DNA of 64,000 nt, taken from NCBI RefSeq assembly GCF_006345805.1, contig NW_021835474.1:1-64000 (forward strand). The letters run 5' to 3'. This document shows, piece by piece, positions 256-64,000 of the stretch. The notes beneath the pieces were generated by a model. The model was not told the origin of the DNA and made no database searches. It saw only the letters and a list, made by a program, of their open reading frames with translations. This stretch comes from Octopus sinensis. Taxonomy: Eukaryota. The position numbers were made by a program, and so were the translations under genes. Within the stretch, counting starts at the first letter, position 1; the number at the start of each line of letters is the position of its first letter.

Positions 256-460
256 AAGGTAGTGAGCTGACATAATCATTGGCACACTTGGCAAAACGCT
301 TACTAATATTTCATTTGTCTTCATGTTCTGAGTTCAAATTCTGTTGAGGTCACCTTTGCCTTTCATCCTTTCAGGGTTGAGGAAATAAGGCGTTGGTGAT
401 ATACCCCTCCTCCAAAATTTCAGGTCTTGTGCCTATAGCAGAAAGGATTATTATTATTAT
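256..460 (+). mobile_element. Monomeric tRNA-derived SINE of the same head/body family, with the ordinary tail
   Basis: gagctg..., gagttcaaatt B-box, gaggtcacctttgcctttcatcctttc body, tail ...ccttgtgcctatagcagaaagg(att)n; further degenerate copies near 465-650, 17560-17770 and 18240-18520. Confidence 0.7.
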
Positions 461-7907: not shown

Positions 7908-8626
7908 CATCATCATCATCATCATTATCGTTTCACGTCCGCTTTCCATGCTAGCATGGGTTGGATGGCTCAACTGTGGTCTGTGAAGCCAGAAAGCTGC
8001 ACCAGGCCCAGTCTAATCTGGCAGTGTTTCTACAGCTGAATGCCCTTCCTAACGCCAACCACTCCGTGAGTGTAGTGGGTGCTTTTTACGTGCCACCAGC
8101 ACAGGTGCCAGGGGAGACTGGCAACGGCCACAATTGGTTGGTGCTTTTTACGTGCCACCGGCACAGGTGCCAGGGGAGGCTGGCAAAGGCCAGCCACGAT
8201 CGGTTGGTGCTTTTTATGTGCCACCGGCACAGGTGCCAGGGGAGGCTGGCAATGGCCACGATCGGTTGGTGCTTTTTACGTACCACCGGCACAGGTGCCA
8301 GGGGAGGCTGGCAACATCCACGATCGGTTGGTGCTTTTTATGTGCCACCGTCAGAGGTGCCAGAGGAGGCTGGCAACGGCCATGATCAGTTGGTGCTTTT
8401 TACGTGCCACCGGCACAGGTGCCAGGGTAGGCTGGCAACGGCCACAATCGGTTGGTGCTTTTTATGTGCCACCGGCAGAGGTGCCAGAGGAGGCTGGCAA
8501 CGGCCATGATCAGTTGGTGCTTTTTACGTGCCACTGGCACAGGTGCCAGGGGAGGCTGCCAACAGCCACGATTAGTTGATGCTTTTTACATGCCATCGGC
8601 ACGGAAGCCAGTCAAGGTGGAACTGG

Positions 8627-13090: not shown

Positions 13091-14032
13091 ATACCTATTC
13101 CTTTACTACCCACAAGGGGCTAAACACAGAGAGGACAAACAAGGACAGACAAAAGGATTAAGTTGATTATATCGACCCCAGTGGTTCACTGATACTTAAT
13201 TTTGTCGTCCCCGAAAAGATGAGAGGCAAAGTTGACCTTGGCGGAATTTGAACTCAGAATGCAACGGCAGACAAAATACCTATTTCTTTACTACCCACAA
13301 GGGGCTAAACACAGAGAGGACAAACAAGGACAGACAAACGGATTAAGCTGATTATATCGACCCCAGTGGTTCACTGATACTTAATTTTGTCGTCCGCGAA
13401 AGGATGAAAGGCAAAGTCGACCTCGGCCGAATTTAAACTCAGAACGTAGCGGCAGACGAAATACCTATTTCTTTACTACCCACAAGGGGCTAAACACAGA
13501 GAGGACAAGCAAGGACAGTCAAACGGATTAAGTTGATTATATCGACCCCAGTGTTTCACTGGTACTTAATTTTGTCGTCCCCGAAAGGATGAAAGGCAAA
13601 GTCGACCTCGGCCAAATTTGAACTCGGAACATAAAGACAGACGAAATACCTATTTCTTTACTACCCACAAGGGGCTAAACACAGAGGGGACAAACAAGGA
13701 CAGACAAACGGATTAAGTTGATTATATCGACCCCAGTGTTTCACTGGTACTTAATTCTGTCGTCCCCGAAAGGATGAAAGGCAAAGTCGACCTCGGCGGA
13801 ATTTGAACTCAGAATGCAACGGCAGACAAAATACCTATTTCTTTACTACCCACAAGGGGCTAAACACAGAGAGGACAAACAAGGACAGACAAACGGATTA
13901 AGTTGATTATATCGACCCCAGTGTTTCACTGGTACTTAATTTTGTCGTCCCCGAAAGGATGAAAGGCAAAGTCGACCTCGGCCAAATTTAAACTCAGAAT
14001 GTAGCGGCAGACGAAATACCGCTAAGCATTTC
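13091..14032 (-). repeat. SINE multimer: five 185-bp units plus a truncated head, nested antisense in a related + strand SINE (about 13011-14135)
   Basis: ATACC junctions at 13091, 13276, 13461, 13646, 13831, 14016. Confidence 0.9.
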
Positions 14033-14916: not shown

Positions 14917-15789
14917 CTAGAAAAGAAAAAAAAATAGCAAAATTATAATAGATAAGGTTATTTAGAATGAAAGCTGGTTAAGTTGCTACAATTACTCCAG
15001 TTTAATATAAATACTTTACACCATCAAGCTATACAAATTTGAAACCAAACAATTGTTGCGGAAAAGATCAAGGCTACATGTAAATTTAGACCCCCCTTTA
15101 GTTATAAATGACTATGGGATTGCACCTAGAAAGTCCCCCCCGCCAAGGCATAAGTCTGGCCAAGGTTGTTTATGGAAGACCAGCGGTTGACCAGGCATAC
15201 CAGCCTCACCTTTCCATGCCACTGATGTTACCCAAGGGAAAGGCAAAGGGGCCGAGACAGCTTGGCACCAGTGACATCGCAACTCATTTCTACAGCTAAA
15301 AGAACTGGAGCAATATGAAATAAAGTATCTTACTCAAGAACACAACACACAGCCTGGTCCGGGAATCGAACTCACATCCTCAAGATTATGAGTCCAACAC
15401 TCTAACCACTGAGCCATGTGATCTTCACATCTAAATACCTGTAACCATATTCAGTTACACTGTTTCATCACTTTCTATGTTATATATTACTTGTGCTGAT
15501 CTTCTGTATTCAGTTGTGATGCTATATTCAGTCAAACATTTATACATGTTCTATTAAATTTCAAAATAATTAGCTATCAACACGTCAGTGTTAGCTATAA
15601 ACCTAAATAAATCACCAATCAGGAAGCAGTTGAATCCAATTGTAGTGTCCGATTGAGAGGTGCATTGTTAACATTATAGTAGTCTGGATACCATTGGTGA
15701 CATCCAGACTACAGTGGAGAAGGCAGGCCACTGGATTTGGTTATAAAGAGATGATAAGCAATGGTTTGAAGAAATTTGAGCAAAACCTA

Positions 15790-16915
15790 TTTCTTTACTA
15801 CCCACAAGGGGCTACACACAGAGAGGACAAACAAGGACAGACAAACAGATTAAGTTGATTACATCGACCCCAGTGCGTAACTGGTATTTATTTAGTCGAC
15901 CCCGAAAGGATGAAAGGCAAAGTCGACCTCGACGGAATTTGAACTCAGAACGTAACGGCAGACGAAATACCTAAACATAGAGGGGACAAACAAGGACAGA
16001 CAAACGGATTAAGTCGATTATATCGACCCCAGTGCGTAACTGGTACTTATTTAATCGACCCCGAAAGGATGAAAGGCAAAGTCGACCTCGGCGGAATTTG
16101 AACTCAGAACGTAACGGCAGAAGAAATACCTATTTCTTTACTATCCACAAGGGGCTACACACAGAAGGGACAAACAAGGACAGACAAACGGATTAAGTCG
16201 ATTATATTGACCCCAGTGCGTAACTGGTACTTATTTAATCAACTCCGAAAGGATGAAAGGCAAAGTCGACCTCGACGGAATTTCAACACAGAACGTAACG
16301 GCAGATGAAATACCTATTTCTTTACTACCCACAAGGGGCTACACACAGAGAGGACAAAGAAGGACAGACAAACGGATTAAGTCGATTATATTGACCCCAG
16401 TGCATAACTGGTACTTATTTAATCGACCCCGAAAGGATGAAAGGCAAAGTCGACCTTGGTGGAATTTGAACTCAGAACGTAGCGGCAGACAAAATACCTA
16501 TTTCTTTACGACCCACAAGGGGCTAAACACAGAGGGGACAAACAAGGACAGACAAACGGATTAAGTCGATTATATTGACTCCAGTGCGTAACTGGTACTT
16601 ATTTAATCGACCCCGAAAGGATGAAAGGCAAAGTTGACCTTGATGGAATTTGAACTCAGAACGTAGTGGCAAACGAAATACCTATTTCTTTACTACCCAT
16701 AAGGGGCTAAACACAGAGAGGACAAAGAAGGACAGACAAACGGATTAAGTCGATTATATTGACCCAAGTGCGTAACTGTTACTTATTTAATCGACCCCGA
16801 AAGAATGAAAGGCAAAGTCGACCTCGACGGAATTTGAACTCAGAACGTAGCGGCAGACGAAATACGGCTACGCATTTCGCCCGGTGTGCTAACGTTTCTG
16901 CCAGCTCCCTGCCTT
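15790..16915 (-). repeat. SINE multimer: one tRNA-like head plus six ~184-bp units
   Basis: Junctions at 15967, 16126, 16310, 16494, 16678, 16862; one unit has a ~25-bp deletion; 17-bp TSD AATTTGAGCAAAACCTA (15773-15789 and 16916-16932). Confidence 0.9.
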
Positions 16916-17132
16916 AATTTGAGCAAAACCTAATAACCAGTTGATCTAGCAGACAGGGCTTCATTTCAACGAGTGGGGCTGGTGCACAACGATGCCATTG
17001 AGAGGAAGACCCCCGCCAAATAGCGTGCATTCTCTCCCATAAACTTGCTAGCGTCCAGTATGCAGAGCTTTGAACTGGTAGCACATGCATCTGCAAGTTG
17101 TATGCAAAAAAAAAAAAAAATGAATGGCAAGG

Positions 17133-27149: not shown

Positions 27150-27900
27150 AGAAATGGTCGAGGGCCATTCTTGCTGCTCGGCTGCTGGCCACGATGCTTT
27201 TCTTATCATCTTTTCTAGCCCACTCATTAGCTCCCTCTCTAATATATTTCTCTCTATCACTATCTTCTTGCTAAGTGATTACAGCTCATATTTCCCGCTT
27301 CGAGGTGGTGGTGCTCCTCACCCTCTTAATGTTTATGATTGCCCCCATCAAATACTGCTTGACTAGTTTGTCAATCCGGTTTCTATAGACTTTGCGCATT
27401 CAACATCCAGTAACTTGGCCCTAGTCTATAAGTTCTATCTGTGCAGACCACAAATTTGTGACCTGTGTAGCTGATTTCTTTAAAATGTGGATATCCAGTG
27501 GCATCTCTTTGCTAACATGACAAATACTCTAAGTATAATTTGGATGACCTATTTTAGTCGCTCTAAGTCCACTCTGGTGCATTCAGGAAATCTAGCCAGT
27601 ATATGTCAGACAGTTAGAAGCATTTTGAGCAGGTTTTCAAGGCTTTTGCACCTCCTTCTCATATGGATTAACCCTACACAATCCCATTGTGCATCTAAAT
27701 CAAATCCCCAGCGGATTTAAGAAGCGGGATGTTTTCAGGAACGTTTCTTGACGTCGTCTTACCCCAGTAGGTGCGTAGACGGCCACGACTTTCAAGGTAC
27801 TGACTTTAAAATCATCCTTATCCAATACTACCGAATTACTACGTGGATTTATGAAGCTTCTCTGTACTGCTTAACCTAATTCTTTCCGGAAGGAAAAGCA
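27150..27900 (-). mobile_element. Degraded Tx1-like endonuclease fragment
   Basis: LKVVAVYAP, WDCVG, SYTGHKFVVC, GPSYWMLN align with ORF2 of the element at 57.6-62.9 kb. Confidence 0.55.
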
Positions 27901-47345: not shown

Positions 47346-48399
47346 ATGGATCATTCAGCTCTGGCTGGTGTTGGTTAGAAGTGCTTCATTATTACAACAG
47401 AAAATATGATGTGTCCTCCTGGGATCCTCTCAACTCCCTATCACAAGGGTTTTGTTCAGGTTACATATCAGTAAATATAGGCTCCCAGCGATCATTCAAG
47501 TTAGTTATTTAGAAATTGTTACACACTACGTGATTGGATCCGAGATCCAGTTCCCTCGCAATATTCAACCAATCAAAATACAGGACTTGGCTAAATATTC
47601 CAAACTCCCATGATAAATCAAACGACCATTCATTAAAGATTAACATGTGGCGCCTATAAAAGGCTAGTCGACTACAAAATGCCACAACAGAAATGGGTCT
47701 TGCTACAAGACATTTCTGTAGGAGAGGGAAACTCCAAAATTACTTCACATCATTGGAAAGCCAGAGGTATTACTCTTGTCTGTTACTGAATAACTTGGCT
47801 TTGGAGGTGAGAGTTTAAGTGATAATTTTCATCAATGGTTATATTCATCTACAATGTATGTATGTATGACTTCTCTTTCTCATTTTAATTTAGAGTAAAT
47901 TTTGACCAACCATTGACTTGATAGCAAAGTTGTGAAGGAAAGTATCCTGTTTCAATCGTCAGTCTTTAAATCTATAGAAAATCTTGCAGATTTCTATGAA
48001 AAGTCTGGCTGCATACACGTTAGCATGACTGAGGGCTGGTGAACCAGATGGCTGCACCAGGCTCCAATCTTGATCTTGCAGAGTTTCTACAGCTGGATGC
48101 CCTTCCTAACGCCAACTACTCCAAGAGTGTAGTGGGTGCTTTTTACGTGCCACCGACACGGGGCCAGTCAGGCGGCACTGGTAACGACCTCGCACGAATC
48201 TTTTACACATGCCACCAGCATGGGTGCCAGTAAGGCGATGCTGGTAACGATCCCGCCCGAATGGTGTTTTTTACGTGCCACCGGCACGGAGGCCAGACAG
48301 CCGCTCTGGCAACGATCACGCTTGGATGGTGCTCTTAATGTCTAACAATAAATCAAATGTGTCTTGGTTAGTATTTCATTTATAATTTGTTGAACTTAC

Positions 48400-56362: not shown

Positions 56363-57237
56363 AAAAAATTATTTACTTTGTGTAAAAAAAAAAAAAATTA
56401 TTTTGTGTTTTATTTACTTTGCTAGGTAGTCGTTGTAGGATCGACTAGTCACGACTAGCTAGTGCGGATGCACAAGTACGCGAATGCGCGCACCGGGACC
56501 ACTCTTCTTAAGTAGTACCCCAAAATTGTAACTTTATTACCGGTCGCCAAATTATTACCATTGTCGGTACCTAGAATGTTTCTCTCCTGTCTCCTCGTAT
56601 GTTTCTTTGATGTTCTAGTAATAATTTTTTTTTACTGTAGCACCAGTTAGTAGTTTGGGGACACATGCTGACCATTTAATGTTGGCATTGCGCAAATTCA
56701 GACAACAACTTCCGGCCAAATCGAAAGCGCTTCCAAAAGCTAAAAGTTCAGGGGAGTTGCTGCGAAGACGTTGAACTGTCAACAATGTACTTTCAAGATC
56801 TTCATTCTATCAGCCTCGTCTAGAACATTAGAAGTTACTGTTTTGCTTTCGCAATCATTAGCAACTATGAATCCTTGGACCCAGTTCTTCAAGTGACATT
56901 CGTTTCTTTTAAGCAGTTATGAAGCTTATTATATCGTTTTCATCCGGTTTGCTGAAATCGGCTTTTTCCAGCAAGATTCGTATCTGCATTGACATTTGTC
57001 CTCTTTTGTATTTCCACTCTGGAGACCCTGGAAATTGTAGTAAGTGAAACCGAAATTATTCATATCTTACAAATGTTTTTCTTGCCAGACTCTATGTTTA
57101 CATTTTGATGTTTAGCACACGCACCTTAATTTCTCCTGTAATTTACGTTTGTTCTGCGTTGTTTGGAAACTGTAATAAGAATTGTATTTCATTTGAACAC
57201 ATACAATTCATTTGCATTCTGGTATCTATCGTTACCT

Positions 57238-57581
57238 ATTTCTTTACAACCCACAAGGGGTTACACAGAGGGGACAAACGGATTAAGTCGATTACATCGA
57301 CCCCAGTGCGTAACTGGTCCTTAATTTATCGACCCGAAAGGATGAAGGCAAAGTCCTTCTGGAGGATTTGAACTCAGAACTTAAATGCAGATGAAATACC
57401 TATTTCTTTATACCCACAAGGGGCTAAACACAGAGGGGACACAACAAGGACAGAAAAGGGATTAAGTCGATTACATCGACCCCAGTGCGTAACTGGTACT
57501 AATTTATCGACCCGAAAGGATGAAAGGCAAAGTCGACCTCGGCGGAATTTGAACTCAGAACGTAACGGCAGACGAAATACC
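57238..57581 (-). repeat. Two tandem SINE body+Tx1-like-tail units (3' part of the SINE split by the LINE)
   Basis: Same unit as the arrays at 13091 and 15790; junctions at ...GAAATACC|TATTTC. Confidence 0.85.
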
Positions 57582-57828
57582 AATTTCTTTATTGCCCACG
57601 GGGGCCAAACATAGATATGGACAGTACAACTGATGGGATCAGTGAATCGATATGATTTTACATAAATGTGACATCAAAAATAAAATACAATACATAAAAA
57701 TCGAATGGAATACACAGTACAAAAACAATACAAATGAAGCGATGATCAAGTTACGCTCCGATCCCACAAGCCCCGATCTACCGCTGATACCTTTTTATTT
57801 TCCTTTTTTTTTTTTTTTCCTCGTCTAT

Positions 57829-60800
57829 TCACACGGTTCCTTGCACGCACAACACTCGTGCAACATACTTCCATCTCTTTTGGAACGTACACTCTGACAG
57901 ACACCTCTTCTCCAGCCACAGTTTCCTTTTCAAATGAAAAGAAAAAAAGGATCGTAAATTGTCACCAGAGATAAAGTTGCCTGTTAATTCCTTATCCTTA
58001 TCCTAGTATTCCATACAGCCTCTTTTGCTATTGCTACAACCGTGAGAAAACAATTCTTACCTTCGTTCGTTAGAACTCCCGGTGGGTCAATTTTTATAAT
58101 TGACTCAGTCGACAGCCGTACTCTTCCTTCGCCGGACAACAGATGTTCAGCATAAGCCCACATTTCAGTTATCTCCGGACACTGAACAATAGCGTGAGGG
58201 ACGGTTTCCCTGTCCCCACCGCATCTTGGACAGGTCGGCGACTGACGTTTACCATGTCTTGCGAGCTTATCCCAAACGGGCAAGGCACCTCTGTAGCATT
58301 GCCAGGTTAAGGACTTTTGGAAGTTGTCCAACGTTCTCAACCCGAATGTACGATGAAACAAGCTGTCCAGTTGAATAAATCCGAGACCTAGAGTCGACCC
58401 CAGGCCATCGTCGCATTCAGACTCTACCAACCCACTATATAAAATCCGTGTGGAACCCCCACCGCTGGCGTTGCCCGAGCGCCGGAACAGCAAGAGGGCC
58501 TTACGGCACTCTTTATGCCACTCACTCGACCTCGGTCTACGAGAACAGGCTTCCTGTTCGCAAAAACTCTTGAACTCAGGGAACATTTGTCTGGCCAGCG
58601 GAGACCACACCCGTTCACTATCCAGGAGAATCCAGAGGTGCCTCAACCTCAACGCATGTCTGCGCATCATTAACCAAGGCATCCCTAAACCTCCATTTAA
58701 AGGCTTTTGACAGCAGACAGAGCGTTTCACAAGTGGCGACCTGCCCTTCCACAAAAAGCGAAAGAGCTGTCTCTCCAACCTGATCAACCACGAATCCGGA
58801 CAGGGCACGACAGTCAGGCGGTAGGTAATGACCGATGCGATAAACACATTGGCCACTTCCGCCCTCCCTTTCAGGGATAGCCACCGCCAAGACCAAGTCT
58901 TGACTACTGCAGCCACCCTGCTCAATACCTCCGTCCAGTTCTTCTCTATCTGGAGGCCTGGTCCAAACCAGACTCCCAGCAACTTAACCGGTCCCTCCGT
59001 CCAGCGCCTAACAACACTGTCTGAAGGCATCGACTTGCCAACCCAGGTGCCGAGCTGCAAGCCGACCGACTTTTCCCGGTTAATCTTTGCTCCTGCTACC
59101 TCCTCGTAAGCCTCAATAGTCTTACCTACTTCACGTAGGCGTACCACTGTGGTTACACTGATAGTGATATCATCCGCGAAAGCCGTAACAAACTCCTCTA
59201 GTCCTGGTTCTCTCGGGATGCCACTCAACCTTTGCAGTAATGGCTCGAGAGCCATCACATACAAAAGTGGTGAAAGCGGACATCCTTGACGAACCGAGCG
59301 TCTGATGCAGAACGGCTTCGAAAGGAAACCGTTCACCCGAACTATCGAGTCAATGTTGTGGTACAAAGCGATAAACCACCTGAGGAAGCCAAGGCCCAGG
59401 CCAAACCGCGCAAGTACAGTCGCTAGGTATCGATGGTCAACCCTATCAAAAGCTTTAGACTGGTCCAAATGCACCAATGCCCCACCTTTGCCAGATTTAT
59501 TACCAAACCTCTCTATGGTATAGCGAATAAGATGGAGGGTATCCTGAATGGTTCTGCCTGGGATGGCACATGTCTGTGCCTCCCCGACTATACCATTCGC
59601 GACACGCGCCAACCTTTTTGCTAGAACCTTGGCCAAAATCTTCACTTCTGCGTTTAACAGAGTGATGGGCCTGAAATTCTCTAGAACGTCCCCCTTGTCC
59701 GGGTCCTTTCTGACCAACGTCACTACTCCCCGGCGCACAGATCTGGGGATAAACCCATTCTGTTTCCAGTTCGCGTACACGTCAGTCAGTAGTTGCCCGA
59801 ACAAGTCTGGCATACATTTATACAGCTCGTACGGAAGACCATCAAGTCCCGGTGACTTACCCGCTTTACAATCGGCCAAAGCCTCCATCACCTCCTCAAG
59901 TGTGATTGGCCCTTCGCAAGACTCCGCATCCGACCCCGAGAGGCACGGCAGCCCGGTAAGAAAGTCCTCGAGGGCTCTCCCACCACCAGGACCGCCGTCA
60001 CCCCCGAACAGCTGGGCGAAGTACTCCCGAAAGACCTCACACATTTTCTCGGGTTCGTTTATCAAGACACCATTTTGATTCGTCAAAGACCGAATAGAGG
60101 AACTATTTCCTTGCCGAGCTTCCACCACTCGGGCCCATCCAGCGGCTTTGATTCCTTCACTTCCCATTGCACGTAACTTAGCTCTGGTAATACTTCCCAT
60201 GTGGTGGGCTTCAAGATGCTGGTTTAACTCCAGTCTTTTCACCCTCGCTTGGTCTGTATTACCAGTCCTCCAGGCTTCTTCTAGTTCCTTAACTAGACCA
60301 TCTCCTATTTTACGTCCCTTCTTAGCTAAACTTATGCTAAACCTAATAGACTCATATTTGATGGCTCTTTTTAGGGCGTACCACCATTTGTTATTAATGA
60401 TGGTACCTGTTAATGCCCTCTGTATTAACATCTTGATCCGCTTTCTGTACTCCTCAATCGCCAAAAGGGACGTATTGAGTTTCCAGTAGCCAGATCCCTG
60501 TCTATGCAACTTATCTACCGTCAGTTTACAGGTAACCATCTTGTGGTCACTGTAGCTGACTAGAAAAAACTGTGGACACTCAACTATGGACTTATTTTTC
60601 TCTAATTAAAATCCTATCTAGATATGTTCTGGTAGACCCGTCACTATTTGACCACGTCCACTGTGGAGTGTTCGGGTGCTCCAACCTATATGGATCTGCT
60701 AGCTGAAATTGACTTAGCAGATCCCGAAAGCCTGTGTTACATTTTCTGTTCATGTTCGAGTTTGAGCCAACACAATCTGTGTGTGCTGCACATATTGTAT

Positions 60801-61230
60801 TAGAGTCTCCTAACACTACTAGTGAATGCGACGTGGCTAGGAACTTTCCTAGGCCACGAAAATATTCAGTTTGCGGGCCAATAATGTTTGGTGCATAAAT
60901 AGCGACCAGCCTGATTGTCTTGCCACAACTGAATGTCAAGTCGAGAACGACCAGCCTGCCTTCTGGGTCAGAAAAAACCAACTTTTTCTCGGCTACCCGG
61001 TTTCTTTTTAGTAGGACCAACACCCCACCCCCACCTCCCGCCCGACTCGGAGAAACGTATTTCTCGTAGCCGTTCAGGAGGGGGAGCAGATCTCTTGGCC
61101 CCTTCACCCGGGTTTCCGTTGCAACAATTACATCCAAATTTCTCGACCTGATGTCATTCAGAAAGCGTCCTTGCTTCCAGCTTGACAACAGGCCATGAAC
61201 ATTTAAACAACCAATGTGAATAGCCATCAC
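57829..61230 (-). pseudogene. LINE ORF2 (APE endonuclease + reverse transcriptase + zinc finger), frameshifts near 60595 and 57990
   Basis: CLNVHGL, YAPN, YLDRI, SDHK (APE); GYWKLN, KSPGLDGL, FRPITLLN, KAFDRVDH, RQGCPLSP, FADD (RT); CPRC..H...C; a shifted frame continues ...FHLKRKLWLEKR...VQGTV* to 57829. Confidence 0.9.
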
Positions 61231-61238
61231 TTACCTGT

Positions 61239-62591
61239 TTAATTAGGATTGTCCGGTGGAGGGGGACCCTCCACCTTTTTTTTATCCAGGGTCGGAGGTG
61301 GACGGTCTTGGGAAATAGATTTGTCAAAATCCCGTCTCACCACCGACACAGAATTATCAGGTGGAGGGGGAATCTCCACCTTTTCCTTTTCTCGCGGGAT
61401 CGGAGCTGGTAATCCATGAAATATCGACTTGTTAAAATCTAATCTCAATGAAGATACAGTCTTTCTGTACTTATTTTGTAGAATTCTATAAGTCTTATTT
61501 GAGACTTCATATATGTCGTAATTGATAAATTCCTCTGAAAGGTTATCAATTTTTTTTACAGTCTTTATGAGTTGAATGTCTCTCATGAGCTCAGTATCTT
61601 TAGTGTATACGGCTATTATGCCTTTTTCTTCTTTTTCTCTTCTGGCAGTCTTTTTTGGTCGTTGTTCTGTAGTAGTCGCCGCTCTCGGCTGGGTTGCTGG
61701 TTGTATTTTTCTGTTTGTTGTTTTTTTCTCATCTGTCTTCTTTATCTTCTTCCTCTTTGTCTTTTTTCTCCTCTTCCTCCTCTTCTTCATTTTCCTTGCA
61801 GTTCCTTCGAATGTGGCCTAATTGACCACATAAAAAACATCGAGGTTTTCGGCCCTCAACAAACACCACGAGGTTCTCCTCCCCTACCTCAATTGTCTCA
61901 GGAATTGTTTGAATTATTTTAGGGTCCGCTTGAATGAGAAGATTAATTGTTTTACCATCCCAGCGTGGGTTTTCCGTAGCGGTAGCCTGGAGGAGAGTAA
62001 TTTTTTCTACCTCTTTGATTAGGACTGCCGCCAACAACCACATAGGTTCGACCTCTGGCGGGACCCTTGTAATTTTTATTCGCGACGTCCTCATCCCCAT
62101 ATAATAGGGTATTAACTCCACGTCGTTCGTTTTCAACGTTTCCACTGAGTTCTTGTGTGCTATTTCTTTATTGGTGAACCTTACTTCCACCGTTCCGAAT
62201 TTTTTTCCTCTTCTCAGAAATACTACGTCGCCCAATATTGGCTTTAAGCACTTTTCTATTTTCTCTTCTGACATTCTTTCAATTTTTCTTTTTGTAGACA
62301 ATATGTTTTGAAAATTATTGTTTTTTGCTTTTCTTCCTGTAATAACTTTTGCGGAGGTTCAATTTTCACACTGTTGTCATTTATTTCCATCATTTTGCTG
62401 TATTTCATAATTTCGCTTTTATTCGTCGACAGTATCTGGGTTCCACCCCCAGCAGCCAACGCAAAATTTTTTCCATTTTTTGGTTCTATCTGGATGCTAG
62501 GCACATCAATTATTCTCTTCGACACAATGCCTTTGTTCTCTGGCAAAGTCGGAAACTCTTCTGGTGAAAGTTCTGACGAGCTCTCAGACAC
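61239..62591 (-). pseudogene. LINE ORF1 (gag-like), two frameshifts
   Basis: Overlapping ORFs 62256-62591, 61729-62301 (zinc knuckle CFLCGQLGHIRRNC) and 61239-61790; ends 8 bp before the ORF2 ATG. Confidence 0.75.
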
Positions 62592-62924
62592 ATCTCCAAA
62601 AATATCAAATATATTATCCTCTCTGCTATTCCTTCTTGTAGCGGGGGAACCCTATTTCCTTGTCTGTAGTTGGCTCCTCGCCGGACATGTATTTCCTCCT
62701 CTCAACAGGAGAAACAAGTATTTCTGCTCCAACGGTAGGCTCCATGCTAGACGACATTCTTCCCCCGAAAGGGGGAATGAACAACGCGTGCTACCACAAG
62801 CACTAAGTGTTTTCAATTGAAAACTCCAACAGTTAAGTTATTCAACAGTTTAACAAGAAACAACAGTTGTTAACAATATTAACACCACGAAACAGCAATT
62901 CTTACTTCACGAACACATGTGCGA

Positions 62925-62985
62925 CAGACGAAATACCGCAAAGCATTTCGCCCGGCGTGCTAACGATTCTGCCAGCTCGCCGCCT
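62925..62985 (-). mobile_element. 5' head of the tRNA-like SINE split by the LINE
   Basis: GGCGGCGAGCTGGCAGAATCGTTAGCACGCCGGGCGAAATGC...GTATTTCGTCTG with an A-box-like TGGCAGAATCG; the whole composite is bounded by a 21-bp direct repeat (57217-57237 and 62986-63006, 1 mismatch). Confidence 0.85.
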
Positions 62986-63390
62986 TTCTGGTACCTATCG
63001 TTACCTTTATGTAAAACAGCCATTTGCATTTCTTGCTAAACTTGCTAAATTGGTGATTACACGCCGCTAGAATATTTCTTTTGAAATATTCTCTAAAGAA
63101 AACAACAACAAAATTGAAGCACAAACAGATAAGCTAAAGACTATTTGGCAATCTTTCGTTTGTAGTAGACCTTTCCGTCGATGATTTCCGTAAAAAACTT
63201 TTATTCTTTTACATATGGGCTTGCGGTAACTTCTGAAGTAATGAGAGCGAAAGAGACTAAGAGAAAGCGATTTTATGACGAGGGAAGTTCTTTTCAAGTT
63301 ACCGTGCAAGAGAAGCATTGATGTACATGTGTATGTGTGTGCGTATGTGTGTGTGTGTGTGTTTGATGGGGTGTGGGAGACAGAAAGTAT

Positions 63391-64000
63391 GTTGTGTAGG
63401 TGAAGTGCTTCTGTTAGTGTGTGTGAAGAGACAGAGAGAGTAACGTGCGAAAGAGAGAGATAACTGAATTTTTTTACTCGGTTTTTGTAGTGCGTGCGTG
63501 TGTATGCATGTATGTGTGTGTGTGTATGTATCTATGTACGTGTGTGTATGTATGTATGAGTGTGTATGTGTATGTATGTATGTATGGCCGATTCAGTGTT
63601 TACATTATTTCGAGTTAAAACGAAAGATTACCAAAAAAAAAAAATGTTGTCTATATCTTCGATCACTGTCATTATTCCATTGAGTTAACCTCATTATTTT
63701 CTACATAGCAGACCGTTACATAAACAGGCAAAGGTAATCTTTCGTTTTAACTCGAAATAATGTAAACACTGAATCGGCCATACATACATACATACATACA
63801 TACATACATACATACATACATACATACATACATACATACACACACACATACATACACACACACACATACATAGATACACACACACATACATGCATACATA
63901 CATATACACATACACCGAGTAAAAAAATTCAGTTTCTCTCTCTTTCACACATTACTCTGACTCTTCACACACACTAACAGAAGCACTTCACTTACACAAC
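63391..64000. repeat. Long inverted repeat / MITE-like fold-back running off the window end
   Basis: gtatggccgattcagtgtttacattatttcgagttaaaacgaaagattacc (ending 63632) and its exact reverse complement from 63732; the outer arms also match. Confidence 0.8.

Follow-up and report, generated by a model that had tools for sequence, protein, structure and literature searches.

In this study, we found that a LINE (long interspersed element) family of Octopus sinensis, designated here as family A, inserts at one fixed base in the head of a high-copy SINE (short interspersed element), and this site-specific landing is well supported genome-wide. The family was recognized in a window of 64,000 nucleotides (positions 1 to 64,000 of contig NW_021835474.1, assembly GCF_006345805.1), where an earlier note made from the sequence alone had described a 5.3-kb LINE in a SINE head with a 13-bp target duplication. 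Indeed, the element, 5,343 bp long, lies on the minus strand between the SINE head and two head-less SINE units, and the two copies of the 13-bp duplication match exactly (Table 1). The SINE has its 3' tail in common with this LINE and with several sister LINE families.

Insertion site of LINE family A

Copies of A were searched in the genome with its 3' untranslated region without the tail or the target. Among 293 candidates, 40 were scored and 30 were fetched, and these are the youngest copies since they are the best matches to the query. All 30 end at one identical base of the SINE head, hereafter site 1. A pattern consisting only of the tail gave 155 exact matches, and 89 of the first 100 listed are at site 1 by hand count. 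The remaining 11 were fetched and comprised nine SINEs with a mutated tail, one older A at site 1 after a short slip, and one short A piece off target, so that 90 of the 91 true A ends among these first 100 are at site 1. For older A copies, which are 85-93% identical to young A, the corresponding number is 28/30, the other two being a junction deletion and an off-target copy. Exact targets make up ~1e-5 of strand positions. These proportions, with duplications of 13-14 bp, are above the >20%-of-flanks criterion for target preference given in the available passages of PMC4494074. Tabulation of the flanks of genomic LINE 3' ends, proposed in the earlier note as a check, thus did not give unrelated flanks, and its claim that the LINE uses the SINE as a landing pad is strongly supported.

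Whole loci were obtained for 20 of the first 21 A copies (the 5'-truncated L014 was left out), and all 20 are full length, preceded by SINE head sequence and flanked by 13-14 bp duplications. The first base of both duplication copies agrees in 20/20 (14 C, 6 G; chance 2e-5). Because the duplications copy the host's own C or G variant (C-type and G-type), the insertions are independent. Host SINEs are 9.9% divergent, whereas the LINEs are 0.7% divergent (a value from 12 copies and 600 nt), and therefore many A insertions occurred in SINEs that had already diverged. These divergences, along with the copied host variants, rule out co-transposition of LINE and SINE as a single composite. The 21-bp duplication formerly ascribed to the composite is present (20/21 identical), but it belongs to the host SINE dimer and therefore gives no evidence that the composite moved as one piece. 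A 3' transduction of SINE units by A is a further possibility, although no flanking duplication was seen in the headless older copies inspected (17/30 looked at).

As had been proposed, the insertion site coincides with a hairpin arm and with the joint of SINE arrays. Folding of the SINE head gives a long hairpin, with a 4-nt loop extending up to the site-1 base (z -2.5; 5/200 shuffles as good), and the units of all three window arrays (13096-14032, 15788-16913, and 57238-57581) are joined at SINE position 48-49. Although array junctions constitute 44% of exact targets, all 22 visible 5' junctions of young A (the 20 loci plus L014 and L023) are preceded by a head and none by an array junction (p 3e-6). 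Thus, A likely needs upstream SINE head sequence, or the hairpin.

Table 1. Coordinates of LINE A, its host SINE, and other SINE copies in the window
Feature	Position	Strand	Remarks
LINE family A, Tx1-like, full length	57582..62924	minus	5,343 bp; 99.4% identical to copy L044
ORF1 (zinc knuckle) of window LINE	61239..62757	minus	PF00098, E 2.9e-05
ORF2 (APE endonuclease, reverse transcriptase, C-terminal zinc finger) of window LINE	57829..61227	minus	Pfam domains
LINE 3' tail, common to sister LINEs and SINE	57582..57625	minus	short stem-loop, then AATAAAGAAAT
13-bp target duplication, 3' copy (site 1)	57569..57581	minus	
13-bp target duplication, 5' copy	62925..62937	minus	
Host SINE head (A-box-like part, site 2, hairpin 5' arm; G-type)	62925..62984	minus	94% to intact monomer
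First SINE unit (B-box-like part, body, LINE-type tail)	57401..57581	minus	94%
Second SINE unit, more diverged	57238..57400	minus	81%
Outer duplication of host SINE dimer, 3' copy	57217..57237	minus	starts GGTA on minus strand; 20/21 identical
Outer duplication of host SINE dimer, 5' copy	62986..63006	minus	
Five-unit SINE array	13096..14032	minus	local mutations common to units
Six-unit SINE array	15773..16931	minus	C-type head, G-type junctions, own 16-bp outer duplication
Older SINE monomer with other ('old') tail	256..460	plus	

Coding capacity and classification of LINE A

The LINE encodes two open reading frames (ORFs). In the window copy, Pfam domains were zf-CCHC in ORF1 and Exo_endo_phos, RVT_1, and zf-RVT in ORF2. 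ORF2 contains an apurinic/apyrimidinic endonuclease (APE)-type domain with its catalytic motifs (PF03372), followed by reverse transcriptase and a C-terminal zinc finger. Its alignment to human L1 ORF2 spans residues 5-867 (E 1.9e-64) and retains the N, E, Y, D-x-N, D, and SDH motifs; the score is 221 bits with L1 as compared to at most 76 with R2. The Tx1 clade has a separate ORF1 with a CCHC zinc knuckle; such an ORF1 is present here (PF00098), and ZCCHC3-like clusters at 0.88-0.89 are a lead only. The closest named relative of ORF2 is from Argonauta hians, and a protein search with the APE region gave no match. Based on domain order, ORF1 type, and target preference, LINE A is here called an L1-group, Tx1-like element.

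The frames of the window copy are interrupted near 62650, 62290, and 61736 in ORF1 and near 60595 and 57985-57997 in ORF2, by either real changes or assembly errors. ORF1 is intact as 520 codons in L044 and L036, and ORF2 as 1,134 codons in L039, L044, and L046. Contigs of four runs, whose kind is uncertain and which have no bearing on expression, cover the window LINE, and at position 58545 the window letter differs from the contigs of three other runs.

The shared tail and the sister LINE families

The same type of tail was found in sister families with other targets: B and B' (~72% ORF2 identity to A), F (71%), C, D, and E (56-58%), and a passenger element with ORF1 only, the family search being not exhaustive. 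Their ORF2 sequences are 56-98% identical, and the targets of this radiation comprise SINE site 1, SINE site 2, a 575-bp repeat, (ATT)n, (TATC)n, and loose sites. In a quick tree (35 rows, midpoint root, no outgroup and no reference Tx1 or L1 rows), A groups with B and F in one branch, whose sister comprises C, D, and E together with two outside cephalopod-group proteins (99 in the Shimodaira-Hasegawa-like approximate likelihood ratio test, SH-aLRT). Protein P0268, which its source labels TX1 (37% identical), was not sister in this tree.

The earlier note had taken the similar tails of LINE and SINE as a sign that this LINE or a close relative also mobilizes the SINE. The similarity itself holds, with mean SINE-tail identity over the last 40 nt of 73% to A and 46% to shuffles, but it extends beyond this LINE: four F copies give 84-88%, and 82/94 SINE tails are closest to F, which was represented by four rows as compared to one row for each other family. 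The SINE and most F copies terminate in GAAATA, whereas A terminates in GAAATT. Folding of the LINE 3' tail alone was no better than that of shuffles (z -0.06). Since the tail is clade-wide and nearer to F, the match was rejected as proof that A is the SINE partner; tail similarity alone names no partner, and a one-to-one pairing is not supported. The SINE may rather have several partners, because its tail is common to a LINE radiation with different targets. B' was considered as a partner for G-type site 1 and was ruled out, as its copies are mostly in an unrelated repeat.

The sister families showed further features. F inserts loosely, with 7 of 28 readable ends starting with AGAA, two of these at site 2. 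B and B' (L181-L210, L283-L302) are 97.6% identical in ORF2 and have different targets. The five closest copies are in or beside site-2-like sequence, and four of the five adjoin the ORF1-only element; most B' copies share a single position in an unrelated ~575-bp repeat, and long C2H2 zinc-finger open frames lie 2-6 kb past the B' end at L287, beside this target repeat. C is in (ATT)n, and D and E are in (TATC)n, with the microsatellite on both sides (L131-L180, L349-L352).

The ORF1-only element (L081-L130; e.g. G000:C6:70544505-70560006, C24:5664000-5683999) is 1.75 kb long and carries a zinc knuckle and the clade tail without ORF2. It is located at site 2, 33 bp upstream in the SINE head, where it forms long tandem arrays; 20/30 ends are followed by AGAAACG, and the single copies L128 and L129 have 18-bp duplications. 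One of its arrays has inserted at a site-2-like word within the ORF1 of a copy of family A (L115 / L107, G000:C5:48424000-48443999). Internally deleted derivatives keeping ORF1 and the tail were also found in families F and A (L112, G000:C8600:30550-32700; L362; L368).

Structure and landing sites of the SINE

The SINE is a short, non-coding, high-copy element of 231 bp flanked by duplications, and its tail has 64,528 exact matches in the genome. The A- and B-box-like motifs of its head were seen by eye only; ARAGORN gave 0 hits, and no transfer RNA (tRNA) match or other Rfam family, including small nuclear RNA (snRNA), was found for the head or the target in the ARAGORN and Rfam searches. The central part may resemble the Meta domain of MetaSINEs.

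Monomers had been thought to differ from array units in their tail. This is true for the copy at 256-460; however, the LINE-like tail is also common in single copies (41, vs 10 with the old tail, among 105 parsed chains, which gives no genome ratio because the sample was chosen by the new tail). The old tail, seen in this copy and in 34 old-type tails of the loci, has the same CTTGT loop and a changed stem (GGC/GCC), and old-tail copies often end in (ATT)n. For these two reasons, it may derive from another member of the same LINE clade.

SINE ends were tallied by hand in the first 100 listed of the 64,528 tail matches, all from one chromosome end: 50 are at site 1, 24 start with TAT, 12 with GGT elsewhere, and 4 with AGA, and 10 are other. 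The ends at site 1 build head-less arrays. In 26 clear outer duplications among the parsed chains, the target includes the start, with a purine at +2 in 26/26, T at +3 in 21/26, and A at +4 in 22/26. Exact SINE junctions number 25,677 of G-type and 338 of C-type (~99% G), and 22 of the first 100 C-type rows listed are A itself. There are 33,755 exact SINE heads, the first 100 listed being 47 C-type and 53 G-type. C-type monomers are younger (0.041 vs 0.096).

Among 164 SINE tails in the stored loci, the tail subtype tracks the site class, with the TAG form at GGT in 73/112 and the CAA form in 2/28, and this may be caused by sampling and age.

It is conceivable, albeit improbable, that targeting is in part guided by RNA, where letters from read-through or from the tail of the SINE RNA would pair either with the nicked DNA or with the end of that RNA itself. 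Some support comes from one SINE tail variant and from the ORF1-only element. SINE tails that contain an inner stretch complementary to the site-1 junction are at GGT sites in 12/14 cases vs 75/150 (p 0.011). In the ORF1-only element, 8 letters are complementary to the site-2 junction, and a variant of its tail is associated with a different junction in 5 cases. However, the loci tested are not a random sample, and most site-1 units have no complementary stretch. A target-complementary tag in the A tail was also looked for, and no complement of more than 4 letters was found in its last 90 nt. Host variants such as GGCATTT and AGTATTT are kept at junctions, and for this reason overwriting of the first junction base by RNA is not favoured either.

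Origin of the SINE arrays

In most arrays the units differ as much as unrelated monomers, and most arrays mix unit types. The headed arrays that end in an old tail have one head, and in 5/5 of them the first unit is younger (0.04-0.08) than the last (0.09-0.18); several carry an old outer duplication. Young-first order, a single head, and old outer duplications fit an insertion in which SINE cDNA (complementary DNA) would pair with the host head. At L036, a SINE with a partial head and its own 16-bp duplication was found at site 1 of an old-tail host.

Alternatively, the arrays may have arisen by slippage, unequal exchange, or the spread of ready-made multimers, the match between array junction and LINE site then going back to a few founding events. 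Arrays bear their own outer duplications, and read-through is possible because the SINE unit lacks four consecutive T. Moreover, the units of five arrays (L216, L267, L273, L274, and window array 1) are more closely related than expected by chance, which points to local duplication, and in all 19 headed arrays taken together the first unit is younger in 13, older in 5, and tied in 1, which is not significant (p 0.10); both observations speak against successive insertion. Nevertheless, the presence of young units on top of hosts that have the old tail and old outer duplications, the separate duplication at L036, and the mixed unit types make this alternative highly improbable as the general origin of the arrays.

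Which LINEs may copy the SINE

We consider it fairly probable that A is a site-1 specialist, that the SINE is copied by several sister LINEs via the shared tail, and that the self-insertions were made by the A lineage. The enzyme steps are deduced from sequence together with established target-primed reverse transcription. The APE domain of A would nick the bottom strand of the SINE head where loop and stem meet, for which upstream head sequence would be needed; reverse transcription would begin at this nick, and a second nick 13-14 bp further on would yield the duplication. The present SINE tail may have been acquired from an F-like sister, letting enzymes of the clade copy the SINE. A cDNA made from SINE RNA at site 1 would pair with the matching host head to give one head and one extra unit, and longer arrays would result from further insertion and, in some cases, local duplication. 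The A lineage would have supplied the site-1 and GGTA share of the SINE insertions, and other sisters the AGAA and TAT shares.

The host types suggest how this may have proceeded in time. Young A is found in 20 C-type and 10 G-type hosts, whereas older A is found in 3 and 23, respectively (p 3e-5), and the off-target older copy L374 has a duplication starting with GGTAT, resembling the 12/100 dispersed SINE ends. Since older A used G-type hosts and this GGTAT site, and C-type monomers are younger, an earlier wave of A fits the SINE self-insertions.

Several observations weigh against this assignment. None of the 28 readable ends of F, the nearest in tail, is at site 1. Young A prefers C-type hosts (20/30), whereas SINE junctions are ~99% G-type. 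C-type accounts for 47/100 of the exact heads listed but for ~1% of SINE junctions, which is below the 3/26 of older A, and therefore timing alone may not explain the C-type deficit. The older A piece L379 is preceded by an array junction rather than a head, and in ~6/30 older A copies neither a head nor a duplication is present in the 140 bp upstream. Finally, one loose consensus fits the outer sites of the SINE, and a single partner could produce it.

Alternatively, a single LINE resembling F and loosely preferring purine-T-A at +2 to +4 could make all SINE insertions, with site 1 as the best fit to its preference, and A would be only a hyperparasite and never a SINE mover. The tail similarity, which is highest to F, and the GAAATA ending common to the SINE and most F copies agree with such a partner, as does the fact that GGTA, TATA, and AGAA starts are spanned by one consensus, and C-type hosts are avoided by the SINE and preferred by young A. 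On the other hand, the F copies seen are not at site 1, older A used both G-type site 1 and a GGTAT off-target site, and no such family was found in the family-level genome searches, which were not exhaustive. We therefore regard a single partner as rather unlikely, and prefer several sister LINEs with A as the site-1 specialist.

The claim that this LINE or a relative mobilizes the target-bearing SINE can thus be upheld only at the level of the clade: the tail is nearest to F, SINE ends are at several kinds of site, and the C-type preference of young A does not match the junctions. At that level, we infer from the sequences that the SINE is mobilized by the LINE clade. Every new SINE copy carries a new site 1, and the clade would therefore enlarge the supply of harmless landing sites for A, so that a self-feeding loop at clade level is likely. 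A more elaborate scenario is possible, although we hold it to be doubtful: a closed loop with an arms race, in which the clade spreads the target-bearing SINE, the younger C-type head is an escape variant that is spared from insertion of more SINE units (1% of SINE junctions vs about half of intact heads), the youngest A has shifted its endonuclease to it, and the SINE head and nearby microsatellites have become separate niches divided among sisters and ORF1-only passengers.

Other features of the window

A weak, old ORF2-like fragment is present at 27386-27619 (E 8e-9, 36% to A). Another repeat family, with units of 62-66 bp, forms tandem arrays at 872-1101, 8078-8602, and 48135-48331. At 63499-63999 there is a long inverted repeat resembling a MITE (miniature inverted-repeat transposable element), with arms facing across 63600-63770; a similar flank follows L307 and L308.

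Comparison with known systems

The comparisons below refer to the available passages of the papers cited. The closest known system is that of the crocodilian Tx1-Mar LINEs and SINEU, which target a third element, Mariner-N4_AMi (Kojima 2015, PMC4494074). As in that system, a SINE and a Tx1-clade-type LINE share one target inside a mobile element, tandem SINE copies occur, formed there by repeated insertion, and two target regions are used by different families. The tail of SINEU is poly(A), and for SINEU-1 no LINE-like 3' part is known (PMC4494074); here, in contrast, the target is the SINE's own head, the SINE tail is LINE-derived, and the SINE has no Rfam snRNA match. Other APE-type sequence-specific LINEs use multicopy DNA as a safe harbour, namely Tx1L of Xenopus in Tx1D, Keno in U2, and Kibi and Koshi in microsatellites (cited in PMC4494074). 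The sister families in (ATT)n and (TATC)n resemble these, whereas A targets a SINE head, and no SINE is among the targets named in those passages of PMC4494074.

Stringent SINE/LINE pairs also share a 3' tail (Ohshima 2013, PMC3747384; Nishihara 2016, PMC4824008). A LINE-derived SINE tail, a short stem-loop, and tail swaps in the history of the SINE are features in common with them; unlike in those pairs, the tail here is common to a LINE radiation with different targets, and one such LINE inserts into the SINE. The octopus SINEs OK, OR1, and OR2 (cited in PMC4824008, PMC4758252) are tRNA-like and, as the SINE here, abundant. In O. vulgaris, 13 recently active L1-Tx1 families with 421 insertions have been reported (PMC13282606), and in the main text of that paper, as far as available, the words 'target' and 'nested' do not occur. 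A LINE targeting its own passenger SINE was not found described in the literature searched; Repbase, Dfam, SINEBase, Kojima and Fujiwara 2004, and most subscription journals were outside this search and may have the families catalogued, and the supplements of PMC4494074 may list further Tx1 targets.

Implications

The radiation of sister LINEs, in which copies with open frames exist, provides a natural series for how APE endonucleases change their specificity. Target-specific LINEs are thought to persist by using multicopy DNA as a safe harbour. In this octopus, the harbour is a passenger likely multiplied by the same clade, and the supply of targets would thus be made by the system itself. 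This would account for head-less SINE arrays numbering in the tens of thousands, SINEs being a main repeat class of this genome.

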